DNA of 64,000 nucleotides from Candidatus Omnitrophota bacterium (GCA_029261065.1 JAJDCB010000026.1:166320-230319), one strand, 5' to 3'. Positions 1,684-48,297 are shown, numbered from the stretch's first letter. Program-made: numbers and translations. Notes: a model not told the origin generated them from the sequence alone.

Positions 1684-2840
1684 ATCCCCTTGAGTCTCTT
1701 AAAGAAGAAGTCGTTGTTCGTTTGACCCCAAAAGAAAATAGAGTTATTGCTTCTTTTAAAGATGCCACACCTCTTGACTGGGAAGATTGGCGTTGGCAGT
1801 TGCGTAATCGTATTCGATCATTAGATGTTTTAAAAAAAGTTGTTAACCTTACCCTTCAAGAGGAAAAAGGGATTGTTGGTTGTGGGGATAAATTAACAAT
1901 GTCGATCCCACCTTACTTTGCGAGTCTCATGGACGCGGATGATCCAAAATGTCCGATCCGTTTACAAAGCGTTCCGCTTGGTTATGAATTAGAAACATCC
2001 GCTGAGGAGATGAAAGATCCTTGTGGGGAAGATGATCATTCACCCGTACATGGTTTGGTTCATCGTTATCCGGATCGTGTTTTGTTTTTAGTTAATGAAA
2101 TGTGTGCGATGTATTGTCGTTACTGTACGCGTTCGCGAATGGTCGGAGATGGTAAGCGGACGTTAAGTAAAGAAACTTATGAAGCAGCTTTCGATTATAT
2201 TCGATCAAATAAAAAGATTCGCGATGTCCTTATCTCCGGTGGCGATCCTTTAACAATGAGTGATCGGATGTTGGAATACATTATCAGCACATTAAAATCA
2301 ATTCCACATGTTGAGTTTGTTCGCATCGGCACGCGAATTCCTGTAACCCTTCCTCAAAGAATTACGTTTGATTTGGTTAACATGCTTAAAAAATATAGCC
2401 CTATCTGGATGAGCATACATTTTAATCATGCAAAAGAAATCACCAAGCGTGTTAAATTTGCGTGTGATTTATTAGCCGATAGCGGAATTCCATTAGGTAG
2501 TCAGACCGTGTTGCTAAAGGGGATTAATGATAAGCCCTCGATCATGAAGAAGTTGATGCACGAGTTATTAAAGATCCGCGTTCGTCCGTATTACATTTAC
2601 CAATGTGATCCCATTCTAGGATCCAAACATTTTCGCACCCCTGTGTCTGTTGGTATCAACATCATGGAAAAACTTCGCGGCCACACCACAGGCTACGCCG
2701 TTCCCACCTACGTCATCGACGGCCCAGGCGGAGGCGGCAAAATCCCCATCAACCCCAACTACATCATCGCCCGAGATGAAAACAAATACATCCTGCGTAA
2801 TTTTGCCAACCAAGAATTCCACTACGTCGATCCCCAATAA
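1680..2840 (+). CDS. KamA/EpmB-family lysine 2,3-aminomutase-like radical SAM enzyme
   Basis: CxxxCxxC radical SAM motif (CAMYCRYCTRS). PLP-binding-like region. The overall sequence resembles L-lysine 2,3-aminomutase. Confidence 0.7.
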   Translation: MNPLESLKEEVVVRLTPKENRVIASFKDATPLDWEDWRWQLRNRIRSLDVLKKVVNLTLQEEKGIVGCGDKLTMSIPPYFASLMDADDPKCPIRLQSVPLGYELETSAEEMKDPCGEDDHSPVHGLVHRYPDRVLFLVNEMCAMYCRYCTRSRMVGDGKRTLSKETYEAAFDYIRSNKKIRDVLISGGDPLTMSDRMLEYIISTLKSIPHVEFVRIGTRIPVTLPQRITFDLVNMLKKYSPIWMSIHFNHAKEITKRVKFACDLLADSGIPLGSQTVLLKGINDKPSIMKKLMHELLKIRVRPYYIYQCDPILGSKHFRTPVSVGINIMEKLRGHTTGYAVPTYVIDGPGGGGKIPINPNYIIARDENKYILRNFANQEFHYVDPQ

Positions 2841-2906
2841 GCTTTTATTGTTGTGAAGCCTAAAATATTGTCATATGTTATACTTTAATTTTAATTAATC
2901 GTAAGA

Positions 2907-3836
2907 ATGGTAGAGATTATGAGGATTCTTAAAATTTATTTAATACTATTGTGTTTAGTCTTTGTTTATCCAGCGCAAATAAGCCATGCAAAGTCGGTAA
3001 GTCAACGTTTGAAAGAGGATTGGGAGAGACGACAACTGGAAAAGCGAGAGGGATCTAAAAATAGTTCCTCAAAGGATAAAAAAAAGCGTAAATCAAATAA
3101 GTTTAAGAATCCTCTAAAGAAGGAGAAATACAAAAAAGTAGGAAGGTTTAGGCTTTTTGATGACAAGCTCTCTGCCGATGAATTTACTCAGTTTTTAGAG
3201 GGCGTTGAATACATGGATCGATTTTATGCCAAAATGGGAGCATCCGTAAAGCGCTTAAATATGAGAATGTTTACAGATAAAGATCGGTATGACGAATATT
3301 ACAACAAAAATTTCAGGGGGTCTAAAAAACATATAGCGAATGCCTATTATTCGTCAAGAAAAAATGAGATGGTGGTATATAAACATTGGAATTTTATGCG
3401 GAGTTTCTACCATGAATATTCTCATGCTTTTTATCGGGATATCATTCCTAAAGGAGCCCCACGGTGGCTTAATGAGGGCTTGGCTGAATACTTTGAAGGG
3501 ATGAAATTTCATTCGAGAAGCCGTGTTACTATTAGTCCACAGCGAGGAAGATTATTAACTGTTAGAGGATGGAAAGGTCGTTTGCCGAATTATGTTGAAG
3601 ATATCATGACGTTATCCTTCAGGAATTTTAAGGCAAAATATGATGATTCAAATTACAACGCTTATACAATATCTTGGGCCATAGCTTATTTTATTCTAAA
3701 ACAAACCCGTGGGGAGCATATTATGGAAAAGTTTTTAAAGGGAATTGCTAGGGGGCGTACGTCAAAGGAAGCTATTGGTGCTGCATATCCAGGGGGGTAC
3801 TCAAGTTTTATTGAGGATTTCTCAGCATTTTATTAG
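2907..3836 (+). CDS. Secreted putative gluzincin-type zinc metallopeptidase with a lysine-rich N-terminal low-complexity segment
   Basis: Signal peptide. HExxH motif (HEYSH) with a downstream NEGLAEYF third-ligand Glu motif. K-rich stretch KDKKKRKSNKFK. Confidence 0.45.
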   Translation: MVEIMRILKIYLILLCLVFVYPAQISHAKSVSQRLKEDWERRQLEKREGSKNSSSKDKKKRKSNKFKNPLKKEKYKKVGRFRLFDDKLSADEFTQFLEGVEYMDRFYAKMGASVKRLNMRMFTDKDRYDEYYNKNFRGSKKHIANAYYSSRKNEMVVYKHWNFMRSFYHEYSHAFYRDIIPKGAPRWLNEGLAEYFEGMKFHSRSRVTISPQRGRLLTVRGWKGRLPNYVEDIMTLSFRNFKAKYDDSNYNAYTISWAIAYFILKQTRGEHIMEKFLKGIARGRTSKEAIGAAYPGGYSSFIEDFSAFY

Positions 3837-3856
3837 AAGTTATCTATTTAGGGTTT

Positions 3857-3910
3857 ACCTTTGTTTGACAGTAAAGGTTTAATATGGTATCCTTTACTTG
3901 AAAGTAAAGG
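3857..3910. promoter_or_regulatory. Putative vapBC promoter with two operator-like palindromes
   Basis: Consensus TTGACA at 3865-3870. Palindrome ACCTTT-N10-AAAGGT at 3857-3878 and CCTTTAC-N6-GTAAAGG at 3891-3910. RBS GGGAGG lies before the ATG at 3920. Confidence 0.35.
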
Positions 3911-3919
3911 GAGGTCAGA

Positions 3920-4189
3920 ATGGTCACAAAACAAATAAAAATTTCATCAAAAAATCAAATTACAATTCCTCAAACGGTTTTGAAAAAATTAGGTGTTGGA
4001 CCCGGTGATGCTATACAGTTGAATATAGAGGGTCAACATGCAGAAATTCTTGTGGCCAAAAGAAAGCAATTGTCCGCGTTAGATTTAGGAAAAAAGTTTA
4101 AGAGCCACCCTAAAAAGGTTTTGTCTATAAAGCAGATTAATCAGGCTATCGTTGATGGTTATAAAGATTTGGCCGGTAAAAATAGATGA
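3920..4189 (+). CDS. vapB: AbrB/MazE-fold (SpoVT-AbrB) antitoxin VapB
   Basis: N-terminal swapped-hairpin DNA-binding motif (KISSKNQITIPQTVLKKLGVGPGD). 89 aa. Overlaps the PIN gene by 4 bp. Confidence 0.65.
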   Translation: MVTKQIKISSKNQITIPQTVLKKLGVGPGDAIQLNIEGQHAEILVAKRKQLSALDLGKKFKSHPKKVLSIKQINQAIVDGYKDLAGKNR

Positions 4190-4575
4190 AGGTTGCCGTA
4201 GATACGAATATTGTTTTAAGGCTTATTCTCGAAGACAACAAGGATCAGCTGTCAAAAGCTAGAAAAATTGTTAGGGATAATAAGGATGAGGGATCAATTT
4301 TTATCAGCTCGTTGGTTTTCCTTGAAATGTATTTTGTTTTAACCAAACTTCTTGGTTGGGATAAAGCACTCGTTTATCAGGCCTTTGAGGACATCTTATG
4401 TGTAAGAGAATTTAGTTTTGAGAATGAAATAGCCATTAGAATGGCCATATCGGATGTAAGAAAAAATCTTGATTTTAGCGATGCCCTCATTGGTCAGGTT
4501 GGAAACTCGAGAAATTTAAAGACATATACTTTCGATAAGCAATTAAAATCTGATACGGCTTTCATCGTCATATAG
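4186..4575 (+). CDS. vapC: PIN-domain toxin VapC
   Basis: Begins MKVAVDTNIVL, the classic PIN N-terminal acidic motif. 129 aa. Translationally coupled to the upstream antitoxin. Confidence 0.7.
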   Translation: MKVAVDTNIVLRLILEDNKDQLSKARKIVRDNKDEGSIFISSLVFLEMYFVLTKLLGWDKALVYQAFEDILCVREFSFENEIAIRMAISDVRKNLDFSDALIGQVGNSRNLKTYTFDKQLKSDTAFIVI

Positions 4576-4591
4576 GAGCAGTTTTACCAAG

Positions 4592-4636
4592 AACCGATTC
4601 CACTTCCGAAGTGGAATCGGTTTATTTGTTTTTTTC
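4592..4636 (+). terminator. Rho-independent terminator after vapC
   Basis: Perfect ~13-15 bp stem AACCGATTCCACTTC / GAAGTGGAATCGGTT followed by a T-rich run. Confidence 0.65.
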
Positions 4637-4730
4637 TAAATATATAGTACTCTTAACTATAGAGTAAAGTTTGACGCTTGAGGGTCTCTGTGTTAAGATA
4701 TCGCCATTCATTTTTAGGAGGAGGAAAAAT

Positions 4731-5033
4731 ATGAAAAAAATTGAAGCGATTGTACGAGATGAGAAGTTTGATGATATTATCAAGGCTTTGGAAGACTCGG
4801 GAATAGGTGGCATAACTGTAACGGAGGCAATGGGTTTTGGGCGTCATCGTAATGGCTTGAAGAAGAAAATGAAGCTAGAGATTTATTGTGATGAGTTTCA
4901 GGTCGATAAGGTTGTTGAGATGATTCGACGTCACGGCAAGACAGATACCACGGGAGATGGCAAAATTGCCGTTATTCGGCTTGAACAATTGTTCCGCATT
5001 CGTACCGGTGAGCAAGGGGCTAATGCGATTTAG
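4731..5033 (+). CDS. PII (GlnB-like) family signal-transduction protein with a short T-loop
   Basis: MKKIEAIVRDEKFDDIIKALEDSGIGGITVTEAMGFGR closely follows the PII N-terminus. C-terminal IRIRTGE motif. The T-loop segment is shorter than in GlnB/GlnK. RBS AGGAGG, preceded by TTGACG-17-TAAGAT. Confidence 0.6.
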   Translation: MKKIEAIVRDEKFDDIIKALEDSGIGGITVTEAMGFGRHRNGLKKKMKLEIYCDEFQVDKVVEMIRRHGKTDTTGDGKIAVIRLEQLFRIRTGEQGANAI

Positions 5034-5422: not shown

Positions 5423-6979
5423 ATGATTAAAGTCAAACGTGCACTTATTAGTGTTTCCAATAAGAAAGGGCTTCTCCCTTTCGTGAAAGGCCTTCACGCC
5501 CTTGGTGTAGATATGATCTCTACCGGAGGCACAGCCCGCCTTATTAGAGAAGCAGGCCTTCCTGTAACTGAAGTTTCCGATTACACCGGTTTTCCCGAAA
5601 TGCTTGATGGACGTGTGAAAACCCTACATCCCAAAATCCACGGTGGTCTTCTCGCATTACGAGATAAGATCGAACATATGACACATATCAAAAAGCATGA
5701 GATTGAATTGATTGATATGGTTGTTGTTAATTTGTATCCATTTGAAAGTGTGACTCAAAAGAAAAATGTTAGTTTAGAAGAAGCTATAGAAAACATTGAT
5801 ATTGGTGGGCCTTCCATGTTACGTTCGGCAGCAAAGAATTATAAAAGTGTTGCCGTTGTTTCCAATCCTGTGCGGTACAACGATATTTTAGTTGAACTTG
5901 ATACCAATTCTGGACTAATGTCTGATAGCGTTTTGTACAATCTTGCCGTTGAAGCCTTTGAACACACCGCGCGGTATGATACCATCATCTCTCAATTTTT
6001 GAACCAACGTAAGACAAGCAAAGAATTTGGTCAACTTCCTCAAGAGATGGATTTTCAGTTTGAGAAGATTCAAGATTTGCGTTATGGAGAGAATCCTCAT
6101 CAAGCGGCATCCTTTTATAAATCAGAAGGGAAGGCTTTTGGGTTAGCGAATATTAAACAGCTTCACGGTAAGGAATTGTCGTTTAATAATATTTTAGATT
6201 TGAATGCAGCTGTTGAATTTATCAAAGGTTTCAATGAGCCGGCAGCTGTTGTCATCAAACACAATAACCCGACAGGCGTTGCGATTGATAAAACATTGGC
6301 GCAAGCGTATAAACAAGCTTGGGCGTGTGATAAGATTTCTGCCTTTGGTGGTATTATTGGATTAAACAAAAAAGTAGACGAACAAACAGCTCTCGCGATT
6401 TCCAAAAGTGGTTTTATGGAATGTGTTATTGCTCCAGGCTTTGGGAATGACGCTCTTAAAGTTTTAAAGAAAAAAAAGAATTTGCGGTTGGTTGAGTTAA
6501 AATTGAAGGATTTAAAGCAGCAATCTTATGATCTTAAGAAAGTCATTGGCGGGTTATTGGTTCAGGAATTTGATGCGCGAGATATAAAGTCGGAAGAATT
6601 AAGGATTGCAACGAAGAAAAAGCCTACCAAAGCACAATTAGATTCATTATTGTTTGGTTGGCGCGTTATTAAGAACGTTAAATCTAATGCGATTATCCTC
6701 GTCAAGGGAACGCGAACGGTTGGAATTGGTTGCGGACAAACCTCACGTGTGGAAAGCGTTAATATTGCCATCGATAAAGCAGGTCCTCAAACGAAAGGCT
6801 CTTCTCTTATCTCCGATGCCTTCATCCCCAAAACAGACAATGTGACTCTTGCTGCAAAAGCAGGTATTAAAGCCATCATCCAAACCGGGGGATCGATTGC
6901 CGATGAAGATGTTATTAAGGCGGCCGACAAGGCTGGCATAGCCATGGTTTTAACAGGTGTCAGACATTTCAAACATTAA
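5423..6979 (+). CDS. purH: Bifunctional AICAR transformylase / IMP cyclohydrolase
   Basis: N-terminus MIKVKRALISVSNKKGL (MGS-like domain) and a C-terminal AICARFT domain. 518 aa. Confidence 0.9.
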   Translation: MIKVKRALISVSNKKGLLPFVKGLHALGVDMISTGGTARLIREAGLPVTEVSDYTGFPEMLDGRVKTLHPKIHGGLLALRDKIEHMTHIKKHEIELIDMVVVNLYPFESVTQKKNVSLEEAIENIDIGGPSMLRSAAKNYKSVAVVSNPVRYNDILVELDTNSGLMSDSVLYNLAVEAFEHTARYDTIISQFLNQRKTSKEFGQLPQEMDFQFEKIQDLRYGENPHQAASFYKSEGKAFGLANIKQLHGKELSFNNILDLNAAVEFIKGFNEPAAVVIKHNNPTGVAIDKTLAQAYKQAWACDKISAFGGIIGLNKKVDEQTALAISKSGFMECVIAPGFGNDALKVLKKKKNLRLVELKLKDLKQQSYDLKKVIGGLLVQEFDARDIKSEELRIATKKKPTKAQLDSLLFGWRVIKNVKSNAIILVKGTRTVGIGCGQTSRVESVNIAIDKAGPQTKGSSLISDAFIPKTDNVTLAAKAGIKAIIQTGGSIADEDVIKAADKAGIAMVLTGVRHFKH

Positions 6980-6981
6980 TC

Positions 6982-8271
6982 ATGACGTTTTTAGAAGCGC
7001 AAAGCGTTCTTAATTCTTTTATCGATTTAGAAAAATCTCTAAATCACCGGGATCCCTCTGAGTTTAAATTAGATCGCATCAAACATCTGCTGCAACTCTT
7101 AGATAATCCTCATCAACATTTAAAAATTATTCATGTTGCCGGTTCCAAAGGCAAGGGTTCAACGTGTGCCATGACGGCGCATATTTTAAAGGAAGCCGGA
7201 TATAAAGTTGGTTTATATACCTCACCGCATTTATATCATTTTCGAGAACGCATCCGTTTGCTTGATAGAACGATACAGTCGTCGGAGGGGAGTGATGTTT
7301 TTTTAGATTGTATTAGTGAGCAACAATTTGCAGAGGTGTTAACGGAGATGTTGCCAGCGATTGAGAGTGTCCGTTTAAAGTTTGAGTTGGGTTCGTTGAC
7401 ATTTTATGAAGTGATCACGGCTTTAGCGTTGTATCATTTTAGTAAACAGATGGCAGACATTGTTATTTTAGAAACAGGGTTGGGTGGTCGTTTTGATGCT
7501 ACCAATGTTGTCTCGGCGATGGTGTGTGCGATAACGGCAATTGGTCTTGAACATACAAAGTTGCTTGGAGGAACTGTTGAAGCTATTTCGCGTGAGAAGA
7601 TTGCTATTGTGAAGACGGGCAAGGAGAGGGTTGTTGTGCAAAAGCAAGATCATGCAATTAATGAAGCCATTAATCAACATTGTAAAAAGTTAGCCATTGA
7701 TCCGTTCTGGGTTGAAGAAGAATGTATGGATTATGAGATACCGTTGCTGGGAAAACATCAACGGCGGAACTTAGCTGTTGCCGTGGCCATTGTTGAAGAA
7801 GTTAAATCTTTGGGTTACAACATTTCAACGGAAGCGATTAAGCGTGGGGCGCAAGGCGTATTTTGGCCAGGGCGAATAGAGGTTATTCAAAAGAATCCTT
7901 TATGGATTATTGATGGTGCTCACACATTAGATTCTGTAAAAGAATTGGTTGAAACTATGAAAGAATTATTCCCTGATCAGAAGGCACTTCTTGTTGTTGG
8001 TATGTCAGATGATAAAAACTTTAAGGAATTATTAGAAGAATTAAAACCGATTGTTCAAAAACTCATCATGACAAAATCCAATCATCCTCGAGCTCGTTTA
8101 TTTGACGAACAGCAATTAAATGGTATATTTGAAGATATTCCTATAACGTATATAAATAGTGTTAAAGAAGTGACAGAATATCTGGCAACTCAAAATGATG
8201 TTGCCTTGTTTACGGGTTCAATTTTTATGATTGCAGAGGTTAGAAAACTATGTACCAATATCAAAGTCTAG
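6982..8271 (+). CDS. folC: Folylpolyglutamate synthase / dihydrofolate synthase
   Basis: Mur-ligase P-loop HVAGSKGKGST. 429 aa. Overlaps mnmE by 22 nt. Confidence 0.85.
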   Translation: MTFLEAQSVLNSFIDLEKSLNHRDPSEFKLDRIKHLLQLLDNPHQHLKIIHVAGSKGKGSTCAMTAHILKEAGYKVGLYTSPHLYHFRERIRLLDRTIQSSEGSDVFLDCISEQQFAEVLTEMLPAIESVRLKFELGSLTFYEVITALALYHFSKQMADIVILETGLGGRFDATNVVSAMVCAITAIGLEHTKLLGGTVEAISREKIAIVKTGKERVVVQKQDHAINEAINQHCKKLAIDPFWVEEECMDYEIPLLGKHQRRNLAVAVAIVEEVKSLGYNISTEAIKRGAQGVFWPGRIEVIQKNPLWIIDGAHTLDSVKELVETMKELFPDQKALLVVGMSDDKNFKELLEELKPIVQKLIMTKSNHPRARLFDEQQLNGIFEDIPITYINSVKEVTEYLATQNDVALFTGSIFMIAEVRKLCTNIKV

Positions 8272-9641
8272 AAGATACGATTGTGGCCATCTCAACACCG
8301 TCAGGACAGGGTGGAATTGGGATTGTGCGTTTAAGTGGTGGGGAGGCTGTTTCCGTTTGTGAAAAGATGTTTAAGGGAAAGAAAGGTAAGCCTGTTTCAC
8401 AACTAAAGAGCCATACGGTCCATTACGGTTGGATTCAAAGTGGTGATGAGGTCGTTGATGAGGTGCTCTTAACCATTATGCGAGCACCCAAAAGTTATAC
8501 CAAAGAAGATGTGATCGAAATCAGTTGTCATGGCGGGATGGTTTCCCTGCGTGCTATTTTGCAACTAGCGATTTCTCACGGCGCGCGCATGGCGCAACCA
8601 GGCGAGTTTACCAAACGCGCATTTCTCAATGGTCGTATTGATTTAGCCCAGGCCGAAGCTGTTCTAGATATTATTCATTCAAAGACGGAACATTTTTTGA
8701 AAGTGAGCACTCATCAACTGAAGGGTGAGCTGTCCACGGAATTGGAATCTATTCGTGAAGAATTGTTAAAGAGTTATGTGGAAATCGAAGCCATCGTTAA
8801 TTTCCCCGAAGATGATATTGATGCGAGTCAACGTGAGAAAATAATTGAGAAGATAGATGTCCAAAAGCAAAGAGTTGAGAAGCTATTAGCCTCAAGTCAG
8901 CACGGACGGATTCTTAAAGAGGGGATCAAAATTGTTTTAGCAGGTCGTCCAAATGTTGGAAAATCATCACTACTAAATGTTTTGTTAAAAACACCTCGCG
9001 CCATTGTCTCAGACATCGCCGGCACCACGCGTGATACGATAGAGGAGCTAGCCCAAATTCAAGGCATCCCTTTTCAACTTGTTGATACCGCTGGTATTTT
9101 AGAGCCAAGAGATCTTATCGAAGAAGAAGCGGTTAAGCGCAGTCATATGTATATTCAAGGGGCTGATCTTGTATTGTTTGTGCTAGATGCAAGTAGCTCG
9201 GTACAACAAGAAGATCAAATGCTTATGGAACGCGTGAAAGATCATAACGCCTTGGTTGTGTTTAATAAATCAGATCTTAAAAGTCAGATGACTCAAGCGG
9301 ACATTAAGAAATATTTACCAAATAAGAAAATGGTCAAAGTGTCTGCTCTAAAAAATGAAGGGTTTGAGCAGCTAGAGTCCGAGATTCTTGAAGCCGTATG
9401 GCATGACAAACATATCGACACGCATGGCATCATGATAAGCAACGAAAGACACATTCAATCTTTAAGACAAGTTCAATCCATATTAGAAAAATCTCAACGC
9501 ATTTTTCAAGAAGGCATCTCTCTAGAGTTTGTTTCAGAAGAAATTAAACAAGCGGTTAATTATTTGGATAGCATTACAGGTCGTAATGTCGATGCAGATT
9601 TATTAGATACGATTTTTTCGAAGTTTTGTATTGGAAAGTAA
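8250..9641 (+). CDS. mnmE: tRNA modification GTPase MnmE
   Basis: G-domain GRPNVGKSSL and DTAG motifs. C-terminal CIGK motif. 463 aa. Confidence 0.9.
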   Translation: MYQYQSLEDTIVAISTPSGQGGIGIVRLSGGEAVSVCEKMFKGKKGKPVSQLKSHTVHYGWIQSGDEVVDEVLLTIMRAPKSYTKEDVIEISCHGGMVSLRAILQLAISHGARMAQPGEFTKRAFLNGRIDLAQAEAVLDIIHSKTEHFLKVSTHQLKGELSTELESIREELLKSYVEIEAIVNFPEDDIDASQREKIIEKIDVQKQRVEKLLASSQHGRILKEGIKIVLAGRPNVGKSSLLNVLLKTPRAIVSDIAGTTRDTIEELAQIQGIPFQLVDTAGILEPRDLIEEEAVKRSHMYIQGADLVLFVLDASSSVQQEDQMLMERVKDHNALVVFNKSDLKSQMTQADIKKYLPNKKMVKVSALKNEGFEQLESEILEAVWHDKHIDTHGIMISNERHIQSLRQVQSILEKSQRIFQEGISLEFVSEEIKQAVNYLDSITGRNVDADLLDTIFSKFCIGK

Positions 9642-9644
9642 TTG

Positions 9645-9669
9645 AGAAATAGTAAGTAAGTAGGTTGTA
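9645..9669. repeat. Left arm of a ~25-bp inverted repeat bracketing gene 9691..11019
   Basis: GAGAAATAGTAAGTAAGTAGGTTGTA. Its reverse complement recurs at 11051-11075 (18/19 identity with one indel in the core). Confidence 0.5.
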
Positions 9670-9690
9670 GATAGAGATGTTGAGGTGCAG

Positions 9691-11019
9691 TTAGTTGGCA
9701 CCATCAACTTTTTTAATCAAATCTCCAGTTGTTGGGTCAAATGATAAAGTCGTGCCTTCATGGGTTTTTACATCGAAAGAGTAATCAGAGGAATTGATTG
9801 ATTGAAAACCCATTGAATATTGGATGACTTGATAATGCGAATTCATTATCTCTACATTTTTTTTGTTTTTGTAGGCTAAATCAACAATCTCTATTGTTGA
9901 ATATTCTTTTAACATCTTTCCTTCTCGATAAAACCCTATCGCTAAATCATTTTCGTTAGGATTTTCTCCCTTGCCCCAAGTTCCCACACGGACTAAGTCT
10001 CGTTGGTTTAAGTAAATGTTATATTCATACCAGTCGTATGTGTCGAGCAGAACATCTTTGCCTTTAACAACTTGATAGACAAGAGTGTTTCCTTTTTTGC
10101 GATTTGTTAAGGGTTCATCATCAGTATCTATTTTAAGACTCTTTGTGTAAAAATTTCCAACCGCAGAAGCCTTAATCTGAGGATATGGATCGGGATTTAG
10201 CCACAATTCTTCAGCTGGCAAACAATGTCTTTTTGGACTGATATACCACGCTTTTTCATTAATTAAAAAGCTAGGGTTTTCTATGGATGAATATAAACGT
10301 TCAAAGTCTTCCAGATATTTACCATTTATATACATTAAATAATATTTCTCAAAATCAGGATCTTTTTTTGTGGATGGATGTTTCATGTCAGGCCAATTTT
10401 TCGGCCATGGATTAGGATCTGTTTCATCCATTGGAGTTGCCCAAATAACAAATTGCTCAGGTTGCCAGGATTTAAGGTTATTATGTTTAAAAGACTTGAT
10501 TCGATCATAAACTTTAAGAAATGCACGTGGAGTTTTGCTGCGGTCTTTTTTATTAGAATCGAGCTCACCGAAGACACCAACGACTCTTTCTAATTTTCCA
10601 TTTTTGAAATATGATAGAGTATTTGAAGGTGGATGAAAACGGTTAGAAGTAAAGGTACTGTCTTCAAGATGCATAAATTCATCAGAAAAATTAAATCCAC
10701 CTAAGAACTCTTGCATTTCACGTTGAGTCAGTGTGACGGAATATAAATTAATTAAATCCCCTTTCTTTTTTAGAATAACCAATCCGTCATCATAGAGGAC
10801 AAAAGAAGGGTTACGGTAACCAGTTTTATTGGTTATTGGATACGGAGGGTTATCTGTCAAGTGAGCTGTAATATAAAGCAATGAATATTTTAAGACGATA
10901 AGCGGCTTTCGTTCACTAATTTCTGATTTTTTCTCTGCAAAAAGGGATGCGGGAAGAAGGGAGGTTGATAGGAATCCTGCAAATAATAGCATGATCCATT
11001 TACGCCATAATATTTTCAT
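9691..11019 (-). CDS. Hypothetical secreted protein (~442 aa)
   Basis: Long ORF. Likely start MKILWRKW, with RBS AAGGAG 7 nt upstream. N-terminal signal peptide. No recognisable motif. Confidence 0.5.
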   Translation of the reverse strand: MKILWRKWIMLLFAGFLSTSLLPASLFAEKKSEISERKPLIVLKYSLLYITAHLTDNPPYPITNKTGYRNPSFVLYDDGLVILKKKGDLINLYSVTLTQREMQEFLGGFNFSDEFMHLEDSTFTSNRFHPPSNTLSYFKNGKLERVVGVFGELDSNKKDRSKTPRAFLKVYDRIKSFKHNNLKSWQPEQFVIWATPMDETDPNPWPKNWPDMKHPSTKKDPDFEKYYLMYINGKYLEDFERLYSSIENPSFLINEKAWYISPKRHCLPAEELWLNPDPYPQIKASAVGNFYTKSLKIDTDDEPLTNRKKGNTLVYQVVKGKDVLLDTYDWYEYNIYLNQRDLVRVGTWGKGENPNENDLAIGFYREGKMLKEYSTIEIVDLAYKNKKNVEIMNSHYQVIQYSMGFQSINSSDYSFDVKTHEGTTLSFDPTTGDLIKKVDGAN

Positions 11020-11050
11020 AAATCTCCTTATTATTTTTCTACCTACAACA

Positions 11051-11075
11051 TACAACCTACTACTTACTTTATCTC
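11051..11075. repeat. Right arm of the inverted repeat bracketing gene 9691..11019
   Basis: TACAACCTACTACTTACTTTATCTC is the reverse complement of the 9645-9669 arm. Confidence 0.5.
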
Positions 11076-11834
11076 AACAATCTTCGGCTTCGAGGCTTCT
11101 TCTTCCCTTCGCGCTTTATTATTCTCAACCCCTGTTTTAAAAATCTCTTTATTTAATAACATCAATTGTTTTAACATTTCTTGATCTTTCATAATGGATT
11201 TGAAATTTTCATTTTTAAGTAAACTCACAAAATCTTTTTCTTGGATTTGTCTGTTGGTTTCAGGATCACTGGCCAATTCCTGCATCGCTTTGTTTGTTAG
11301 AAGGGCTTTAAATTCATCCTTTTTTTCAAGCTTTTCTCTAAAATCAGGATTGTTTATAACTTGAGCGATGTTTTGAAATTCATCTAGACTTGTTGGAATT
11401 GAATTTTGAGTGAGATTATTTATAATAGTAAAGCTGTGGGATACTAATACATTTAGTTTTAATTTTTGAAAGGCATCTGACTCAATGGGGGCAATTACGA
11501 CGAGGATTAATAAAAGAGCGACAATAGTTCCGCTCCATAAAATACTCATACATCCACCCAAAAAACGACTAAAGGAAAAGCTACTTGTTTCTTCTTTTTT
11601 GTCTGCTTTGAGTATGGATTTAACAATGACAGAACCACAGAGTTTGATGGCAAACGGAACAGAGATTCCAATGAGAAGGGTCATGCCTAGGTTTTGTGTT
11701 TGGGTATAATATTGGAAACTAATGATAGATCCGATAACAAGTGCAATTGGACCTAAAATCATAAGGAACAGACCTTTTTGCCAGCCATGAATAAAAAAGA
11801 TGATGAAAAGTACTATGATAAAAGAATCGATCAT
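11064..11834 (-). CDS. CvpA-family membrane protein with a C-terminal soluble extension
   Basis: N-terminus MIDSFIIVLFIIFFIHGWQKG with about 4 TM helices, typical of colicin V production protein CvpA. Charged, coiled-coil-like C-terminal half. Confidence 0.4.
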   Translation of the reverse strand: MIDSFIIVLFIIFFIHGWQKGLFLMILGPIALVIGSIISFQYYTQTQNLGMTLLIGISVPFAIKLCGSVIVKSILKADKKEETSSFSFSRFLGGCMSILWSGTIVALLLILVVIAPIESDAFQKLKLNVLVSHSFTIINNLTQNSIPTSLDEFQNIAQVINNPDFREKLEKKDEFKALLTNKAMQELASDPETNRQIQEKDFVSLLKNENFKSIMKDQEMLKQLMLLNKEIFKTGVENNKARREEEASKPKIVEIK

Positions 11835-12101
11835 TGTTTTGTGATGTGTGTGTTGGGTTTACGTTAAAATATTAGTATATCATGAGATTTTTTTTGTTCA
11901 ATGATTGAACTAATAGGGTATGATTTTAAAAAAATATTTTAATTATTTTCATTCCAGAGGTTGTAATATAGCAAATAATAAAGTATATTTACAGTAGATA
12001 AGAAAGCGGTTTCATTTATTGGAAATATTAGTTGCTAATTCATCTCTACGTAATACAATACATTTGAAATTTCGTTCTAACCCATTTAAATATAGAAGCT
12101 A

Positions 12102-12431
12102 ATGAAAAATAACGATAATAAAAGAAAAATCCCTCGCCAGGGCTGCCGTGTTCCGGTAGAAGGTAAAAAAGATAGCCTTTTTGAGTCACTTGAAACAGTT
12201 GATATTAGTAAAAACGGTTTAGGCTTTATCTCAACCCATCGTATTCCTGTTAACAAAAAAATTCCTATAGAAATTAACCTATCTGAGGATGAAGATCCGG
12301 TTTTAGTGGTGGGTAAAGTGGAATGGAATCGGGTTATAAAAGGAACCGATAATTACCGTATCGGAGTCTCTTTTGATAGTATTATGAGAGGCTCAAAGTC
12401 ACGTCTTTTGCAATATTTTAAGTCCTTATAG
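12102..12431 (+). CDS. Single-domain PilZ c-di-GMP receptor
   Basis: RxxxR motif (RQGCR) and DxSxxG motif (DISKNG). 109 aa. Confidence 0.65.
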   Translation: MKNNDNKRKIPRQGCRVPVEGKKDSLFESLETVDISKNGLGFISTHRIPVNKKIPIEINLSEDEDPVLVVGKVEWNRVIKGTDNYRIGVSFDSIMRGSKSRLLQYFKSL

Positions 12432-12472
12432 GTATTATCAAAACATAAAGTCACTATTGAGGAAAAGTACCC

Positions 12473-12811
12473 TTGTTATCTCAAATACAAGATGATCGGC
12501 GTATGTTTGCTCGTTTTTCTGCGCGTTTTCCAGCGAAGTTTAAAGATGCCCGTGCAGATTATGGATCGGTTATCGGTCTAAGAGATGCCTCAGCTGGGGG
12601 GGTTAAAATTTTCTCCAGAGAGCGTCTCTATCTTAATGATACTGTCACTATTGAGGTTAGGTTGCCTGATACACAGGCTCCGCTCAATATCAAAGGACAG
12701 GTCGTTTGGTCTAAGAAAAACGAACCTAGTTTATGGGAATTTGGTTTGCAGTGCCACACCATTAGTTTGGTCAGTATGTCACGGCTTTATAAATTCGTAG
12801 TTGATAATTAG
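12473..12811 (+). CDS. Single-domain PilZ c-di-GMP receptor (second, tandem)
   Basis: RxxxR motif (RRMFAR) and DxSxGG motif (DASAGG). 112 aa. Confidence 0.65.
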   Translation: MLSQIQDDRRMFARFSARFPAKFKDARADYGSVIGLRDASAGGVKIFSRERLYLNDTVTIEVRLPDTQAPLNIKGQVVWSKKNEPSLWEFGLQCHTISLVSMSRLYKFVVDN

Positions 12812-12922
12812 TTTTTTAAGCCTCTCACCCTTAAAGATCTTGACCCATTCCCCCACATATGTTACATTTCAATATCTTACAAATTGTTGTTAAACTAACA
12901 GTTAGAGAGCTTTTTAAAAATT

Positions 12923-15643
12923 ATGGTTATTAAGCCCAAACTCTATCAATATTTCTCTGATGCAGCTTCCTTTAAATCAAGTGAAGCGATGAGCGATAGA
13001 ATGCTTTATTTTCCCTTGTGTGGGGCAAATAATGATTCTATCAAATCCTCAATTACGCCTTTTTTAAGCGGTGATATCAAGATCGATAAAAATCGTTATT
13101 TAACGAAACCATTTTCCAGAGAAGATTTACGGAGTGTTTCTCGTAATTTTTATCTTAGGAGTCATGATAATGTCATTTCTTTTGCAGATAAAATATCCAA
13201 TGAGCATTCAACAGTTGAAGCAGGGTTTCTTTGGCATAAGGTAACCAAGACTTTTCCTAAAAAAGGACTAGAGCTTCAAGCTTTGAACTTTGTTCCTGTT
13301 TCAGGTGAAAATGTTGAGCTTATGAAGATTACCTGCAAAAACGTTTCTTCAAAAAACATCTCGTTTACACCAACAGGATGTGTCCCAATGTTTGCCCGCG
13401 CCCTTTCCAATAAACATGACCACGAACATGTCACAGCATTACTACAAACTATTACTCAAACAAAACAGGGTGTTATTGTTGAGCCGACGATGTTATTTAA
13501 TGAGGAAGGTCATAAAGACGTTCAAACGACTTATTTTGTTTTTGGATTTGAGGATAGCGGTAACGCTATTAAAGGTACGTTTCCTACGATGGCTTGTTTT
13601 TGTGGTGATGCTGGAACTCTTCGGGAACCGCAGGCAGTCTGTGAGAATTTGGATCCCAAAGGGCTAACAGAGAAAGAATTAAACGGAGAAGAGGCGATTG
13701 GGGCTATACGTTTTGAAGATGTTGAACTTAAAGCCGGCGATTTGAAAGAATATTATATTGTTATGGGAATAGCAGAAAACAATAAAAGTGTGTTTGATAT
13801 TTTCTCGGCTTTTGATACGGGACCTAAATTTGAGCAAGCCTTAACCGAGAATAAAAAATATTGGCAAGCTAAGATTCATTCCATTGAGTTTAATACGGGT
13901 TCGACCGATTTTAATGCCTGGATGAAGTGGGTCACCTTACAGCCTGTTTTGCGTCGCATTTTTGGGTGTTCTTTTTTGCCAGATCATGATTATGGAAAAG
14001 GGGGGCGTGGTTGGAGAGATATTTGGCAGGATTTATTATCGCTTATTCTTATCGAACCGGAAAATGTCAGAGAGCATTTATTGAATAATTTTGCTGGTGT
14101 TCGCATTGATGGTTCTAACGCAACAATCATCGGTGATAAACCAGGTGAGTTTTTGGCCGATCGTAATGCGATTACACGGGTATGGATGGATCACGGCGTC
14201 TGGCCGTTTATGACATTGTTACTTTATATAAATCAAACAGGAGATTTTGATATTCTGTTTGAGGACAGTTTCTATTTCAAAGATCCGCAAATATCACGAA
14301 CCTTTCATAAAGATCTTCAATGGCACCCCAAGGATGGTAAAGAGTTAAAGGATGTGAACGGAAATGTTTACCAAGGTTCTATTTTAGAACATATTCTTGT
14401 TCAGCATTTGGTTCAATTTTTTAATGTGGGCGAACACAATATGATTCGATTAGAAAATGCTGATTGGAACGATGGCTTGGATATGGCTTTTGACCGCGGG
14501 GAAAGTGTTAGCTTTACATCCTTTTATGCTGGAAACTTAATGGCCTTAGCAGATCTTTTGGAACGCGTATCTAGCACAATACAGATTCATGATATTTCTG
14601 TGGCTCAAGAATTATTAAAGTTATTAGATGGGTTAGGAAAAAATAAAGTTGATTACAATAATGCAGATGCCAAACGCAAACATTTATTTGATGTTTATTT
14701 TCCTTCCGTTCAACCCAACGTTAGCGGAGAGAAGACAACGATTGCTATTAAAGATGTGGTTTTAGATTTACGAGCGAAGGGAGAATCGTTAAAAGTATGT
14801 ATTCGATCTCAAGAAAAGATAGTTGTTGATGATAAATCAAATCAGTTTCAGTGGTTTAATGGGTATTACGATAACAAGGGCAACCGTGTTGAAGGCAAAA
14901 AAGATGACACGGTTTGGATGACTCTTACGGGTGCCGTTTTTCCGATTATGTGTGATGTAGCTGAAGATGCTGATGTAGAAAACATTGTTAAATCTGTTAA
15001 TCATTTTTTGAAAGATCAAGAGCTGGGTGGTTATCGTCTTAATACGAATTTTGGTAAGCGTAATTATTTAGACTTAGGGCGAGCTTTTGGATTTGCCTTT
15101 GGGACAAAAGAAAATGGAGCCTTCTTTAGCCATATGATAGTGATGTATGCTTATGCCCTTTACACAAGAGGTTTTGTTCGCGAAGGTTATGAGGTGTTGC
15201 ATTCGATTTATCAGATGTGTATGAATACGGATAAAAGTAAAATTTACCCAGGAGTACCAGAGTACTGTGATGCACAAGGTCAAGGCATGTATCATTATCT
15301 AACGGGGTCCGCTAGTTGGCTTGTATTAACACAATTGACTCAAGTATTTGGTGTCAGAGGTGAGGGTGGCGATTTGGTTATTAGTCCTAAGCTTGTAAAA
15401 GAAGAGTTTTCACATGAAGGTAAGGCTTCTGTTGAAAGTTATTTTGCTGGAAAGAGAATAAAGGTCGTTTATCACAATGAACAGAAATTAGATTATGGAT
15501 CGTACACCATAAAAGGTGTTTCGTTTAAAGATTTTGAGGGTTCTGTTGAATTTTCACAAACGCATCCCGCCCAAATTAAGCTCTCAAGAGCCCCTATCCA
15601 ACAGGCCCCTTCTGGCCTTGAAATTCAGATTCAACTAGGTTGA
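12923..15643 (+). CDS. GH94-like glycoside phosphorylase (cellobiose/cellodextrin/chitobiose/beta-1,2-glucan phosphorylase superfamily)
   Basis: 906 aa. RGWRD (Arg...Asp at i, i+4) and DWNDGLD (Trp-x-Asp) are spaced ~150 aa apart. This mirrors the R351/D355 and W488/D490 catalytic-site residues of cellobiose phosphorylase. Family-level call only. Confidence 0.45.
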   Translation: MVIKPKLYQYFSDAASFKSSEAMSDRMLYFPLCGANNDSIKSSITPFLSGDIKIDKNRYLTKPFSREDLRSVSRNFYLRSHDNVISFADKISNEHSTVEAGFLWHKVTKTFPKKGLELQALNFVPVSGENVELMKITCKNVSSKNISFTPTGCVPMFARALSNKHDHEHVTALLQTITQTKQGVIVEPTMLFNEEGHKDVQTTYFVFGFEDSGNAIKGTFPTMACFCGDAGTLREPQAVCENLDPKGLTEKELNGEEAIGAIRFEDVELKAGDLKEYYIVMGIAENNKSVFDIFSAFDTGPKFEQALTENKKYWQAKIHSIEFNTGSTDFNAWMKWVTLQPVLRRIFGCSFLPDHDYGKGGRGWRDIWQDLLSLILIEPENVREHLLNNFAGVRIDGSNATIIGDKPGEFLADRNAITRVWMDHGVWPFMTLLLYINQTGDFDILFEDSFYFKDPQISRTFHKDLQWHPKDGKELKDVNGNVYQGSILEHILVQHLVQFFNVGEHNMIRLENADWNDGLDMAFDRGESVSFTSFYAGNLMALADLLERVSSTIQIHDISVAQELLKLLDGLGKNKVDYNNADAKRKHLFDVYFPSVQPNVSGEKTTIAIKDVVLDLRAKGESLKVCIRSQEKIVVDDKSNQFQWFNGYYDNKGNRVEGKKDDTVWMTLTGAVFPIMCDVAEDADVENIVKSVNHFLKDQELGGYRLNTNFGKRNYLDLGRAFGFAFGTKENGAFFSHMIVMYAYALYTRGFVREGYEVLHSIYQMCMNTDKSKIYPGVPEYCDAQGQGMYHYLTGSASWLVLTQLTQVFGVRGEGGDLVISPKLVKEEFSHEGKASVESYFAGKRIKVVYHNEQKLDYGSYTIKGVSFKDFEGSVEFSQTHPAQIKLSRAPIQQAPSGLEIQIQLG

Positions 15644-15662
15644 AAAATCCCAACACTTCATT

Positions 15663-15691
15663 TTGACAAATAGTCAACTGCATGATATACT
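15663..15691 (+). promoter_or_regulatory. Sigma-70-like promoter for the sugar ABC transporter operon
   Basis: TTGACA-17 nt-TATACT, about 130 nt upstream of the solute-binding protein gene. Confidence 0.4.
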
Positions 15692-15822
15692 CATGGTTCA
15701 AATTTTGAAATTAGTACGTAACATGTTCATTTTAAACCGTTTTTGATTCTTTTAGAAAAGACTTAAAGTTTTTTTATTAAGTATGAATATTAGGAAAACA
15801 TGATTTAAGTAGAGAGGTTAAT

Positions 15823-17130
15823 ATGAAGAAGCTACTCAAGGGATTTTTAATTTGTTCATTTTTAGTCTTAATCGGTAGTGGTCTGAGTTGTTCGGGAAAA
15901 GCGGCGGATCCCAACACCGTCACTCTTTGGCACTGGATGAACGATCGTCATGCCGCCATTGAAGAGTTAGCCTCACGTTACGAAGAACAAACAGGTATTA
16001 AAGTTAAAGTTGAATTGTTCGCCCCGCCAGATGCTTATACACAAAGAATCATTGCCTCCGCCCAATCAAGAGTCCTTCCCGACATATACGGAATCCTAGA
16101 TAAAAAAGAAATATTTGCCTCCTTTATTGAAAATGGTTTTGTTGCCAATTTAACGGAGGAGTTTGCCAAAGATAATAATGCTTGGGAAAAATCTTTGTTT
16201 GCCAAGGCCGTTGATGTGAATCGTTTTAAACCTAATAATCCTCAAAATATTGAACCAGGAATTTATGGTGTTCCAATTGATGTAACCAATATTCAAATGC
16301 TTTATAACAAAAAGCTTTTAGAAAAAGCAGGAATCAAAACACCACCAAAAACGTTTGATGAGTTTCTTGCAGCCGGTGAAGCTTTAAAAAGAGTGGGTAT
16401 AACAGGATTTGTTGCTGGTTGGGGTGAGTTATGGATGGCGGATTGTTTTGCTTCTAATTATGCGTTTAATATTATGGGTGAAGATAAGATTATGGCAACT
16501 TATAGGGGAGAGGTTCCTTATACAGACCCTGATTGGGTTAAGGTTTTTGGGGTTTTTAAAACACTTAGTGATAAAGGGATTTTAATTGAAGGTATTGTCA
16601 CAAAACCAAATAAAGATGCCGAACAAGACTTTGCCTTACAAAGGGCCGCCTTTTCTTTTAATGGTTCATGGTGCGTGAATGTTTATCACAATATGAATCC
16701 GGATTTAGATTATGGTGCTATGTTACCTCCTGCGATGAATTCAAAATTTCCTTTAAAGATTTGGGGAGGGGGAGGTTCATCCTTTGTTGTTAATAATCAT
16801 ACGCCTAATAAAGAGAAGGCTATTGCGTTTTTAAAATGGTTAACGGGTCATGAGCAACAAGCCTATCTTTCAGAATCAACAAAGAATTTGCCAGCTAACC
16901 GAGAAGCGTTGTCTTCTATTCCAAAAATATTATCTCAATTTGCATCGGCCATGGATGATACAACTCATCCAACGATTTGGAAGTTTAATGAATTGCCTCT
17001 AGTTGTTGAAAACTTTGATAAAGGGATTCAATCTATTATCATTGGAGAGAAAACTCCAGAACAGGTTGCTGCAGAGGTTCAGGCTGTTAAGGAAAGAGAA
17101 ATAGAAAAAGCTAAAAAGCGAAAAAGGTAA
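15823..17130 (+). CDS. Sugar ABC transporter solute-binding lipoprotein (family 1)
   Basis: Signal peptide with lipobox (LSCSG). 435 aa. Typical SBP_bac_1 length. Followed by two permease genes. Confidence 0.7.
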   Translation: MKKLLKGFLICSFLVLIGSGLSCSGKAADPNTVTLWHWMNDRHAAIEELASRYEEQTGIKVKVELFAPPDAYTQRIIASAQSRVLPDIYGILDKKEIFASFIENGFVANLTEEFAKDNNAWEKSLFAKAVDVNRFKPNNPQNIEPGIYGVPIDVTNIQMLYNKKLLEKAGIKTPPKTFDEFLAAGEALKRVGITGFVAGWGELWMADCFASNYAFNIMGEDKIMATYRGEVPYTDPDWVKVFGVFKTLSDKGILIEGIVTKPNKDAEQDFALQRAAFSFNGSWCVNVYHNMNPDLDYGAMLPPAMNSKFPLKIWGGGGSSFVVNNHTPNKEKAIAFLKWLTGHEQQAYLSESTKNLPANREALSSIPKILSQFASAMDDTTHPTIWKFNELPLVVENFDKGIQSIIIGEKTPEQVAAEVQAVKEREIEKAKKRKR

Positions 17131-17142
17131 GCCATAGGCGCC

Positions 17143-18111
17143 TTGAATGAAGATGGTTTTAAGGCGCAACAACAAAACTTTATTATGTCTACTCCGTCAG
17201 CAAAACAAGTCAGTTTCAACAAACTCAAAAACAACGCACAGAACTTTTCTTTTATCCTTCCCGCTGTCCTTATTTTTGCCACTTTTTATATTTATCCTTT
17301 CTACGACATCTTTAAATTATCAATGCATTCCTGGAACGGAATAAATCTTCATAAAACACCTGTTGGATTAGATAATTTCTTTGAGTTAATGACCGATGGC
17401 ATTTGGTGGAAGTCTGTTTGGAATGCAACCTACATTACATTGATTGCATTAACTTTTCAGAATTTATTAGCTTTTGGTTTAGCGTTAGCATGTGATCGTG
17501 AAATTAGGATGAAGAATTTTTATCGTGTTGTGTTTTTTATTCCCCCTGTTTTATCGGAGGTTGTCGTTGGATTAGTTTGGAAGTGGATTTTAAACCCTTC
17601 TGTTCAAGATGGCCAACACATTGGATTACTAAACTATTTTTTTGATAAAATCGGCTTACATCATTTGGTTCATAACTGGCTTTCCGACCCGAATACAGCC
17701 TTAACATGTATTGCTGTTGTTCATAGTTGGAAAGGATTTGGTTGGGGCTTTATAATGTTACTAGCGGGGCTTCAGACGATTGATCGTCAACTTTATGAGG
17801 CAGCAAAAGTTGATGGTGCAGGGTTTTGGAAAACTTTGACAAATGTCACTATTCCAATGATGATGCCTGTAATTTTAGTGGTTATTATTTTAACGGTATT
17901 AGGTTCGATGCAAGCATTTGTACTAGTGTTATCCATGGTGGGCCAAGGTTTGGTTTATCATACAGAAGTTCCTGTAACGAGGATTTTATCAGCCATGACG
18001 GGAACGAATCGCTTTGGATATGCTTGTTCTATGGGCGTTGTCTTTGGCGCCCTTTTGATTATGGTTTCCTTGGCGTTTAAATTTGTTTCAGATAAGGTAA
18101 AGCAGGCTTAA
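17143..18111 (+). CDS. Sugar ABC transporter permease (MalF/UgpA-like)
   Basis: Six TM helices. EAA motif EAAKVDGAGFWKTLTNVTIP. The true start may be the internal MSTPSAK. Confidence 0.75.
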   Translation: MNEDGFKAQQQNFIMSTPSAKQVSFNKLKNNAQNFSFILPAVLIFATFYIYPFYDIFKLSMHSWNGINLHKTPVGLDNFFELMTDGIWWKSVWNATYITLIALTFQNLLAFGLALACDREIRMKNFYRVVFFIPPVLSEVVVGLVWKWILNPSVQDGQHIGLLNYFFDKIGLHHLVHNWLSDPNTALTCIAVVHSWKGFGWGFIMLLAGLQTIDRQLYEAAKVDGAGFWKTLTNVTIPMMMPVILVVIILTVLGSMQAFVLVLSMVGQGLVYHTEVPVTRILSAMTGTNRFGYACSMGVVFGALLIMVSLAFKFVSDKVKQA

Positions 18112-18125
18112 GAAGATTATTTTGA

Positions 18126-18147
18126 GGTCCCCGCTTTCGCGGGGATC
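18126..18147. repeat. REP-like GC-rich hairpin (variant CCCCGC-TTTC-GCGGGG)
   Basis: GGTCCCCGCTTTCGCGGGGATC sits between the two permease genes. It belongs to the TCCCGC-N4-GCGGGA family. Confidence 0.55.
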
Positions 18148-18166
18148 AATTAAGAGTGTTATTATT

Positions 18167-19009
18167 ATGTTAAACAAATATCAAATTAAAGGCATGTTTA
18201 AATCCACGTTCCTCCACATCATCCTGATGTCTGTCGCAGCTACGTGTCTGTTTCCTTTATTCTGGATGTTACGTTGTTCTCTCATGACGAATCAGACCGT
18301 ATTTGTAGATAAATCTTTTTTCCCACATGAGTTGCATTTTATGAATTATTTTCAAGCTTGGACAGAAGGTAATTTTGGAATTTATTTCATTAACAGTATT
18401 ATTTACACAACAAGTGTTGTTGTCGGAATTGTTGTTGTATCATCCTTAGCCGCTTATGCATTCTCACGTCTTGAATTCCCTGGAAAAAAGGTGTTCTTTT
18501 ATATGTTTGTCTTAGCAATGATGATTCCTCTACCAGGTAGTTTCGTTGCCCTTTTTGATTTAATGAACATCATCGGACTTGTGAATACGCGAATAGGGTA
18601 TATACTTTGTATGATTAATGTTGGTCTTTCAATGAGCATCCTTTTATTAAAAACATTTTTTGATAAAATGCCCCCGGATCTTGAAGATGCCGCACGGATT
18701 GATGGTTGTGGAAGGCTTCGTATTTGGTGGAATGTTGCTCTTCCTTTAGCAAGACCTGCGTTGGCGGTTATTATTATTTTTAATTCATTGAATGTCTGGA
18801 ACGAATACATTTTAGCGCAGTTGTTACTAAGCGATAAAAATTTAATGCCATTGCAAAGAGGTCTTATGGTTTTTCAAGGATCACATAGTGTTGATTATCC
18901 TTTGTTGATGGCTGGCTTAACGATTGCTGCTATCCCTATTATTGCCGTGTATCTTTTTATGCAAAAACATATTATTAAAGGGTTATCGTCAGGAGCCGTT
19001 GTTGGATGA
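18167..19009 (+). CDS. Sugar ABC transporter permease (MalG/UgpE-like)
   Basis: EAA motif DAARIDGCGRLRIWWNVALP. Start taken at MLNKYQI so the upstream REP hairpin stays intergenic. No ATPase gene in the locus. Confidence 0.75.
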   Translation: MLNKYQIKGMFKSTFLHIILMSVAATCLFPLFWMLRCSLMTNQTVFVDKSFFPHELHFMNYFQAWTEGNFGIYFINSIIYTTSVVVGIVVVSSLAAYAFSRLEFPGKKVFFYMFVLAMMIPLPGSFVALFDLMNIIGLVNTRIGYILCMINVGLSMSILLLKTFFDKMPPDLEDAARIDGCGRLRIWWNVALPLARPALAVIIIFNSLNVWNEYILAQLLLSDKNLMPLQRGLMVFQGSHSVDYPLLMAGLTIAAIPIIAVYLFMQKHIIKGLSSGAVVG

Positions 19010-22489: not shown

Positions 22490-22511
22490 TATTTCTCATT
22501 CCACTATTTTT

Positions 22512-22543
22512 CAGGGTATTTGTTGATTCTAACAAATACCCTG
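22512..22543 (+). terminator. Perfect 13-bp hairpin (possible terminator or regulatory hairpin)
   Basis: CAGGGTATTTGTT-gattct-AACAAATACCCTG. No clean T-run follows it. Confidence 0.35.
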
Positions 22544-22635
22544 AAAATCCTTTTAAATCACAATTTGTAATCTACCATTTTCAAGCAAAAGATTAAAAAC
22601 AGAATGACCTGCCGAGAATAGAAAGGCTAAGCAAC

Positions 22636-29922: not shown

Positions 29923-29930
29923 AAGAAAGG

Positions 29931-30235: not shown

Positions 30236-30253
30236 TCAAAAGAAAATAGCTGG

Positions 30254-31357: not shown

Positions 31358-31383
31358 ATGTTTTGGTTGTGTATGTCTTTGTG

Positions 31384-48267: not shown

Positions 48268-48297
48268 AGTTTTTTGAAGCAACAATAAGGTGATATC

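Follow-up and report, generated by a model that had tools for sequence, protein, structure and literature searches.

The material analysed here is a single stretch of 64,000 nt from Candidatus Omnitrophota bacterium (GCA_029261065.1 JAJDCB010000026.1:166320-230319), hereafter referred to as the window, and all coordinates are positions within it. At 8250-9641, the plus strand carries mnmE (TIGR00450, E=2e-120), whose conserved C-terminus ...FCIGK* is intact. It is faced by a minus-strand gene at 11064-11762 encoding a cvpA-like membrane protein (232 aa according to the gene caller, with a longer ORF reaching 11834), for which the match to Colicin_V/CvpA is weak. Between these two convergent genes lies a minus-strand ORF of 442 aa (9691-11019), which we call the passenger gene and which had been correctly delimited in an earlier note on this DNA. 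Its ATG (11019-11017) is preceded, four bases upstream, by a Shine-Dalgarno sequence AAGGAG (11024-11029, minus strand).

The passenger gene is bracketed by an inverted repeat. On the plus strand, the left arm has a 28-nt core at 9642-9669, TTGAGAAATAGTAAGTAAGTAGGTTGTA, beginning at the base that directly follows the mnmE stop TAA (9639-9641). The right arm covers 27 nt at 11051-11077 and reads TACAACCTACTACTTACTTTATCTCAA on the plus strand, or TTGAGATAAAGTAAGT-AGTAGGTTGTA once reverse-complemented. The alignment of one arm with the other (28 and 27 nt, respectively) contains 25 matches, two mismatches and one single-base indel. Repeats of about 25 bp thus do flank the ORF, as the earlier note had proposed, but they are not exact reverse complements of each other; nor does the 26-nt left string given in that note start at 9645, its first base being 9644. 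Weaker gapped similarity continues on the left-arm side up to 9690, so that it takes in all 49 nt separating the stop codon of mnmE from that of the ORF, and on the right-arm side it runs inward to about 11030. Both arms had been placed in short intergenic spacers, which holds for the left arm and only in part for the right one, as the outer 14 nt of the latter (11064-11077) belong to the cvpA-like gene and make up its last four codons and its stop (11064-11066). Read inward, each arm contains stop codons in all three frames, a feature to which we give little weight because we roughly estimate that some 15% of equally long AT-rich sequences would share it.

Smith-Waterman alignment of the two spacers gives a score of 39, against a maximum of 31 over 2000 spacer shuffles. 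Of 25 simulations of the full 64 kb under a second-order Markov model, one produced an inverted repeat with a score of 39 or more within 3 kb, and blastn-short recovers the arm match within the window with an E value of 0.12-0.16. From the simulations and the E value, the repeat by itself appears only moderately significant. It becomes convincing by its placement. Inverted-orientation comparison of the two 100-nt flanks, applied to every one of the 48 window genes, gives 39 for 9691-11019 and 10-22 for the other 47, so that this test singles out the passenger gene; at 58 metagenomic loci harbouring homologues of the passenger gene, the same score is at most 28. One could still suppose that two AT-rich, low-complexity spacers (of the GTAAGTAAGTAGG type) resemble each other by chance beside an independently gained gene. 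The modest E value, the one simulated window with an equally good repeat and the stop-codon-rich, low-complexity nature of the arms would all agree with such a coincidence. However, both arms would then have to fall in the two spacers of about 50 nt belonging to one and the same gene, which we estimate to be about three orders of magnitude rarer, and none of the other 47 window genes and none of the 58 homologue loci comes close. We therefore consider chance similarity to be very improbable. The arrangement is also reproduced in a second, independent assembly, as the Logan assembly of SRR15505515 (L001) is identical to the window from 6851 to 18455, with 0 mismatches in 11,605 nt. Moreover, the arms share only exact stretches far shorter than the k-mers used by assemblers, and the orientation of the segment should therefore not reflect an assembly ambiguity. 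Our analysis confirms that the inverted repeat bracketing the minus-strand gene 9691-11019 is real.

We could not score any sigma-70-like promoter in the right spacer or arm, nor any terminator near the left arm, and the regional counts of both signals correspond to shuffle expectation. Neither type of signal was scored anywhere between the cvpA-like gene, the ORF and the left arm, and no Rfam family matches at any position in the window. The lack of scored promoters and terminators in the spacers suggests read-through from the cvpA-like gene as the route of expression. A single transcript could then span both arms, which raises the question of a role at the RNA level, in which the arms would pair as a long-range stem of about 28 bp around the cistron and direct its processing by an RNase III-type enzyme, or stabilize it, as in rRNA operons. 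In both the MFE and the centroid folds of the 1,461-nt minus-strand RNA, the pairing of the arms indeed forms the outermost helix. Nevertheless, such a predicted pairing follows automatically from complementarity, and the two mismatches are U-U and A-A rather than wobble pairs. There is no homologous locus in which covariation could be sought, no other gene of the window has such flanks, and the origin of the repeat itself would be left unexplained. An RNA-level role thus seems to us improbable.

The best matches to MnmE share 67% identity with the window protein and several of them are labelled Candidatus Omnitrophica, in line with an Omnitrophota-like placement. We could identify five relatives (L030, L031, L033, L034 and L035) in which purH-folC-mnmE faces a cvpA-like gene, as in the window, within a common gene order of about 20 kb (ATP-grasp, LAM, P-II, purH, folC and mnmE facing the cvpA-like gene, followed by two PilZ genes and GH94 and/or an ABC sugar transporter). 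None of the five carries a gene at the mnmE/cvpA-like junction. The two stop codons are separated by 3 nt in L030, 4 nt in L031, 12 nt in L034, 8 nt in L035 and 144 nt in L033, whereas in the window the segment missing from these relatives, 9642-11063, keeps the two convergent stop codons 1,422 nt apart. If the right arm is included in full, the element would extend over 1,436 nt (9642-11077). The earlier note had suggested looking in relatives for an mnmE-cvpA adjacency devoid of the insert, and this is what we observe in five mutually distant Omnitrophota-like lineages; the contrary outcome that it envisaged, a gene kept at the same position in distant relatives, is contradicted by the absence of the gene from all five. 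These empty sites all belong to distant relatives, the pairwise identity of MnmE being 63-70% in every pair among the seven proteins compared. Since no pair stands apart, the lineage of the window is not an outgroup to the others and a single gain is the parsimonious scenario. A word-based search of 5.8 billion proteins returned no close enough relative of either the passenger ORF or the cvpA-like protein, suggesting that no closer genome is present in those data. The C-terminal tail of the cvpA-like protein is not conserved among the relatives. Judged from this comparison of gene orders, the passenger gene is a lineage-specific gain, that is, an insert.

Other differences were noticed along the same conserved block. 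The 144-nt spacer of L033 (positions 6393-6536 of that locus) is rich in hairpins, at a junction where the other relatives have 3-12 nt. In the same locus, a gene for an 864-aa DUF7948 protein (2372-4966) is inserted between folC and mnmE. The window itself carries a DUF1570 gene (2907-3836) and a PIN-domain gene (4186-4575) in the interval 2907-4575, between a lysine-2,3-aminomutase-like gene and the P-II gene. Both genes are absent from the same place in L031, L034 and L035 and appear to represent a second lineage-specific gain, this one with no flanking inverted repeat (scores of 15-17). Several junctions of this conserved block thus accept insertions.

The passenger protein begins with a predicted Sec-type signal peptide, deduced from the sequence MKILWRKWIMLLFAGFLSTSLLPASLFA/EKK. 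No Pfam or NCBIfam model matches it, in agreement with its previous description as a protein devoid of any recognizable domain. That description is nevertheless incomplete, as an exhaustive HMMER search of 1.84 billion cluster representatives retrieved 669 homologues at E <=0.001, which fall into two families. Residues ~10-279 correspond to a family that we call N, with a Mago-nashi-like alpha/beta fold and members of about 250-300 aa, and residues ~277-440 to a family that we call C, which resembles a partial beta-propeller and has members of about 190-260 aa. Members of each family have a signal peptide of their own. The junction between the two halves is precise: after the C-terminal CLPxEELW motif of the N family come about ten residues, and the C family then starts with its mature N-terminus. 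No homologue spanning both halves is present among the best 150 of the 669, and within this set the passenger appears so far to be a unique fusion of two widespread, uncharacterized families of secreted proteins. Its nearest homologue is 38-41% identical and covers the N-terminal half only; being both distant and half-length, it does not qualify as a donor or sister copy, and none is known. We did not detect any C-family match near the N-family genes of 70 metagenomic loci (L040-L109), and the two families are not neighbours at the two loci of the closest homologues either (P0123 and P0126), where the adjacent genes are unrelated.

N-family genes were found on metagenome contigs from soil, wetland, sediment and the human gut. 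Neither family is modelled in Pfam, if one sets aside two N-family homologues that match DUF6438 at 20.6-25 bits, below the Pfam gathering threshold of 30 bits; the passenger protein, which has no Pfam match, does not belong to DUF6438 by this measure. No catalytic motif and no solved relative emerged for the passenger, and we tentatively view it as a putative exported (periplasmic or surface) binding protein.

The history of the passenger gene was also examined from the side of its homologues and of its composition. Flanking repeats comparable to those described here are absent from the 58 testable N-family metagenomic loci, and only weak ones occur at the two loci of close homologues. The plasmid collection yielded one weak match to the passenger (25% identity) and the phage collection none; likewise, the alignment of the N domain retrieved nothing from viral contigs, and there is no paralogue of the gene in the window. 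Its GC content is slightly low (0.348) and its GC3 is 0.287, for a window value of 0.332 +/- 0.035, and its synonymous codon log-likelihood (-1.035) is close to the window mean (-1.032). With codon usage and GC3 both typical of the host, the gene shows no sign of a recent foreign origin.

We looked for the usual marks of transposition at the borders of the segment, which read ...AAGTAA/TTGAGA...TCTCAA/CAATCT..., the slashes marking its two ends. There is no target-site duplication, and no direct repeat of at least 2 nt exists under any of the end definitions tried. Further copies of the arms are lacking in the 64-kb window, whether at up to three mismatches or by blastn-short, and in 655 kb of fetched loci that include the relatives. 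Exact scanning of the 18-nt arm core against 185,579 species-representative genomes gave 27 single matches scattered over unrelated taxa, for about 35 expected by chance according to our rough estimate, and none of them extends into the outer TTGAGA; a scan of IMG/VR for the arms gave two chance matches only, neither of these collections containing the genome of the present organism. To our knowledge, no insertion sequence has ends that match the arms. We scanned the principal ORFs of the window (48 ORFs, each of 100 aa or more) against Pfam and obtained no transposase, integrase, invertase or recombinase domain, in agreement with the earlier note, which saw no recombinase there, and the only ORF inside the segment is that of the 442-aa secreted protein.

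The window contains several other repeats. Two MITE-like non-coding elements are located at 29930-30237 and 59295-59628, together with a fragment at 62413-62499. They are about 310-330 nt long, with terminal inverted repeats of about 50 nt (GGCTCTTTAAAGTATTAAGTGGGTAAG..., the ends starting with GGCTCTTT) and nested inner repeats, and by eye their alignment indicates a mutual similarity of about 75-80%. The first lies between two identical direct copies of the 8-bp sequence AAAAGAAA, and the flanks of the second match at 6 of 8 positions (TAACCAAT / TAAATAAT). The GGCTCTT end and the 8-bp duplication are reminiscent of the ISL3 family. Similar to the segment described here, the MITEs are non-autonomous, possess terminal inverted repeats and are inserted between genes, but unlike it they carry no gene. 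We also compared the arms with the MITE ends and do not retain them as members of the same family: 9 of 11 positions match at the same offset, but the alignment scores of 13-16 are reached by 81-292 of 500 shuffles.

A REP-like palindromic unit, (TGTCA)TTCCCGCGAAAGCGGGAA, is present in seven copies for 0.09 expected by chance, at 29166-29189, 31281-31298, 31336-31359, 42698-42796 and 48186-48269. These units are intergenic, some standing alone and others forming inverted pairs at distances of 40-70 nt; two copies separated by 2.1 kb bracket a VTT-domain gene, a MITE and a radical-SAM/BATS gene. Between the lipid A acyltransferase and Na/Ca-exchanger genes, a long imperfect inverted repeat (57101-57194 / 57505-57599), with arms of about 95 nt lying 310-460 nt apart, holds the GC-rich hairpin TATCCCGCCTTTTGCGGGA. 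Finally, two perfect inverted repeats of 17 nt may be terminators or further small repeats: TTTTCAGGGTATTTGTT, with a 6-nt loop, at 22508-22547, just past a TPR gene ending at 22489, and AATGGTGTCAGAAGACG, whose arms are 77 nt apart, at 51380-51490 after secA.

This abundance of intergenic palindromes, with the TTCCCGCGAAAGCGGGAA units at four sites and palindromic elements of about 300 nt, bears on a further explanation, according to which the segment arose through a one-off event. Illegitimate or template-switch recombination could have produced an inverted duplication at the junctions, or the gene could have landed in the loop of a pre-existing palindrome, the two arms being the halves of its split stem. 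That we found neither a target duplication, nor a second copy, nor a partner transposase is compatible with such an event, as is the hairpin-rich spacer of L033 at the very same junction, and the host-like codon usage would fit an intragenomic origin. This explanation, however, meets several difficulties. Four of the five relatives have just 3-12 nt at the junction, which leaves no room for a stem, and the L033 spacer is unrelated in sequence. Furthermore, none of the other repeat families in the window matches the arms, and an AT-rich stem of 28 bp would be atypical as a terminator. Mainly because of the very short junctions in these four relatives, we do not favour a one-off rearrangement or a split palindrome, which we regard as unlikely, albeit worth keeping in mind.

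The earlier note had also raised the possibility of a site-specific invertible segment, in which a recombinase would flip the gene between the transcription unit of the cvpA-like gene and the mnmE operon. Invertons such as fim, hin and the promoter switches of Bacteroides likewise have a short inverted repeat at each side of a discrete segment, and the repeats found here have a suitable length. Beyond these repeats, nothing in our data speaks for inversion. Invertons usually enclose a promoter or alternative gene ends beside a recombinase gene, whereas the present segment encloses an entire gene, ribosome-binding site included, but no promoter that could be scored, and a recombinase or invertase domain is lacking in the 48 principal ORFs of the 64 kb. 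In either orientation the gene would lie behind a flanking operon, so that no clear ON/OFF effect would be expected, and a plausible switch logic is lacking. Neither arm has the internal dyad symmetry of hix- or dif-type sites. Lastly, the segment has one and the same orientation in the two assemblies, and lookups of the ORF, MnmE and the cvpA-like protein each led to a single contig. Taken together, these observations make an invertible segment highly improbable.

The pdif/Xer modules of Acinetobacter plasmids, in which single genes are located between 28-bp sites in inverted orientation, offer another comparison. They resemble the segment by their single gene and by inverted sites on the scale of 28 bp. 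Xer sites, however, have an 11-6-11 layout with partial dyad symmetry, which is not the case of the arms. When the latter are written in this way, as TTGAGAAATAG-TAAGTA-AGTAGGTTGTA, no internal dyad symmetry appears, and the right arm is 1 nt shorter precisely in what would be the centre. We thus do not retain the arms as Xer/dif-type sites.

The organization of the segment is most reminiscent of that of mobile insertion cassettes (MICs), which are described as two inverted repeats with no transposase gene nearby, and for which a target-site duplication is usually observed (PMC3913671). The mic-qnrD of Proteeae plasmids, for instance, measures 1,519 bp and has imperfect repeats of 24 bp and no transposase (PMC3913671); MIC231 of Bacillus cereus is mentioned as another MIC (Chen et al. 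1999, as cited in PMC3913671). Similar to MICs, the segment consists of a passenger gene with its own expression signals between imperfect inverted repeats of about 24-28 bp, has no transposase inside or nearby, is of the same size (about 1.4-1.5 kb) and is absent from related, though distant, backbones. It differs from them in that it displays no target-site duplication, no known cognate insertion sequence and no second copy in what was searched. In addition, its host is an uncultured Omnitrophota-like bacterium and its passenger encodes a secreted protein rather than a resistance determinant or an enzyme.

It is tempting to suggest that the segment is a MIC-type cassette, now fixed or decaying, that was moved in trans by a transposase encoded elsewhere. 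This is the reading that we prefer, although we would put its likelihood slightly short of even. The proposal of a mobilized cassette, already made in the earlier note, is supported by the status of the segment as an insert, by its inverted ends and by the lack of a transposase, and not by target-site duplication or by a second copy of the arms in the collections searched. The evidence thus supports an insert, the case for its mobility being plausible but weak, and nothing shows that the segment can still move. In the scenario that we envisage, a 1.42-kb segment with one complete gene and its own ribosome-binding site would have been inserted where the stop codons of mnmE and the cvpA-like gene converge. 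As a non-autonomous cassette, it would have relied on a transposase from elsewhere that recognized both imperfect ends of about 28 nt and moved the passenger gene in trans. Trans-mobilization of non-autonomous elements does appear to operate in this genome, given the bona fide MITEs of the window. The cassette would have landed in or beside the gap of 3-12 nt between the convergent genes, presumably a neutral site, possibly at the expense of the final codons of the cvpA-like gene, which now stops inside the right arm. Read-through from the cvpA-like gene would most likely provide the transcript of the passenger, whose translation would rely on its own AAGGAG. The lack of a target duplication, the imperfection of the arms and a composition similar to that of the host all suggest an old, fixed copy, which is probably decaying.

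Alternatively, the arms could be the ends of an undescribed family of Omnitrophota transposable elements, that is, transposase-less cassettes carrying a single secreted-protein gene, which would insert into the few bases between convergent genes and generate no target duplication. A variant of this idea would give the arms a second role in the RNA, where they would pair over a long range into a stem serving to cut the passenger cistron out of the host transcript. We consider that the existence of such a family has little likelihood.

A MIC-type cassette would be a known and fairly ordinary kind of element, and our observations do not overturn current understanding; their value lies in a clean example of an insertion for which the empty site is available. 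The fusion of the N and C families in the passenger provides a small hint that these two families of secreted proteins work together. If the interpretation of the segment as a cassette mobilized in trans is correct, it would add an uncharacterized end sequence to the catalogue of such elements, and it would mean that an uncultured lineage with small genomes, the Omnitrophota, has gained a gene for a secreted protein by way of an element with inverted ends and no transposase of its own.
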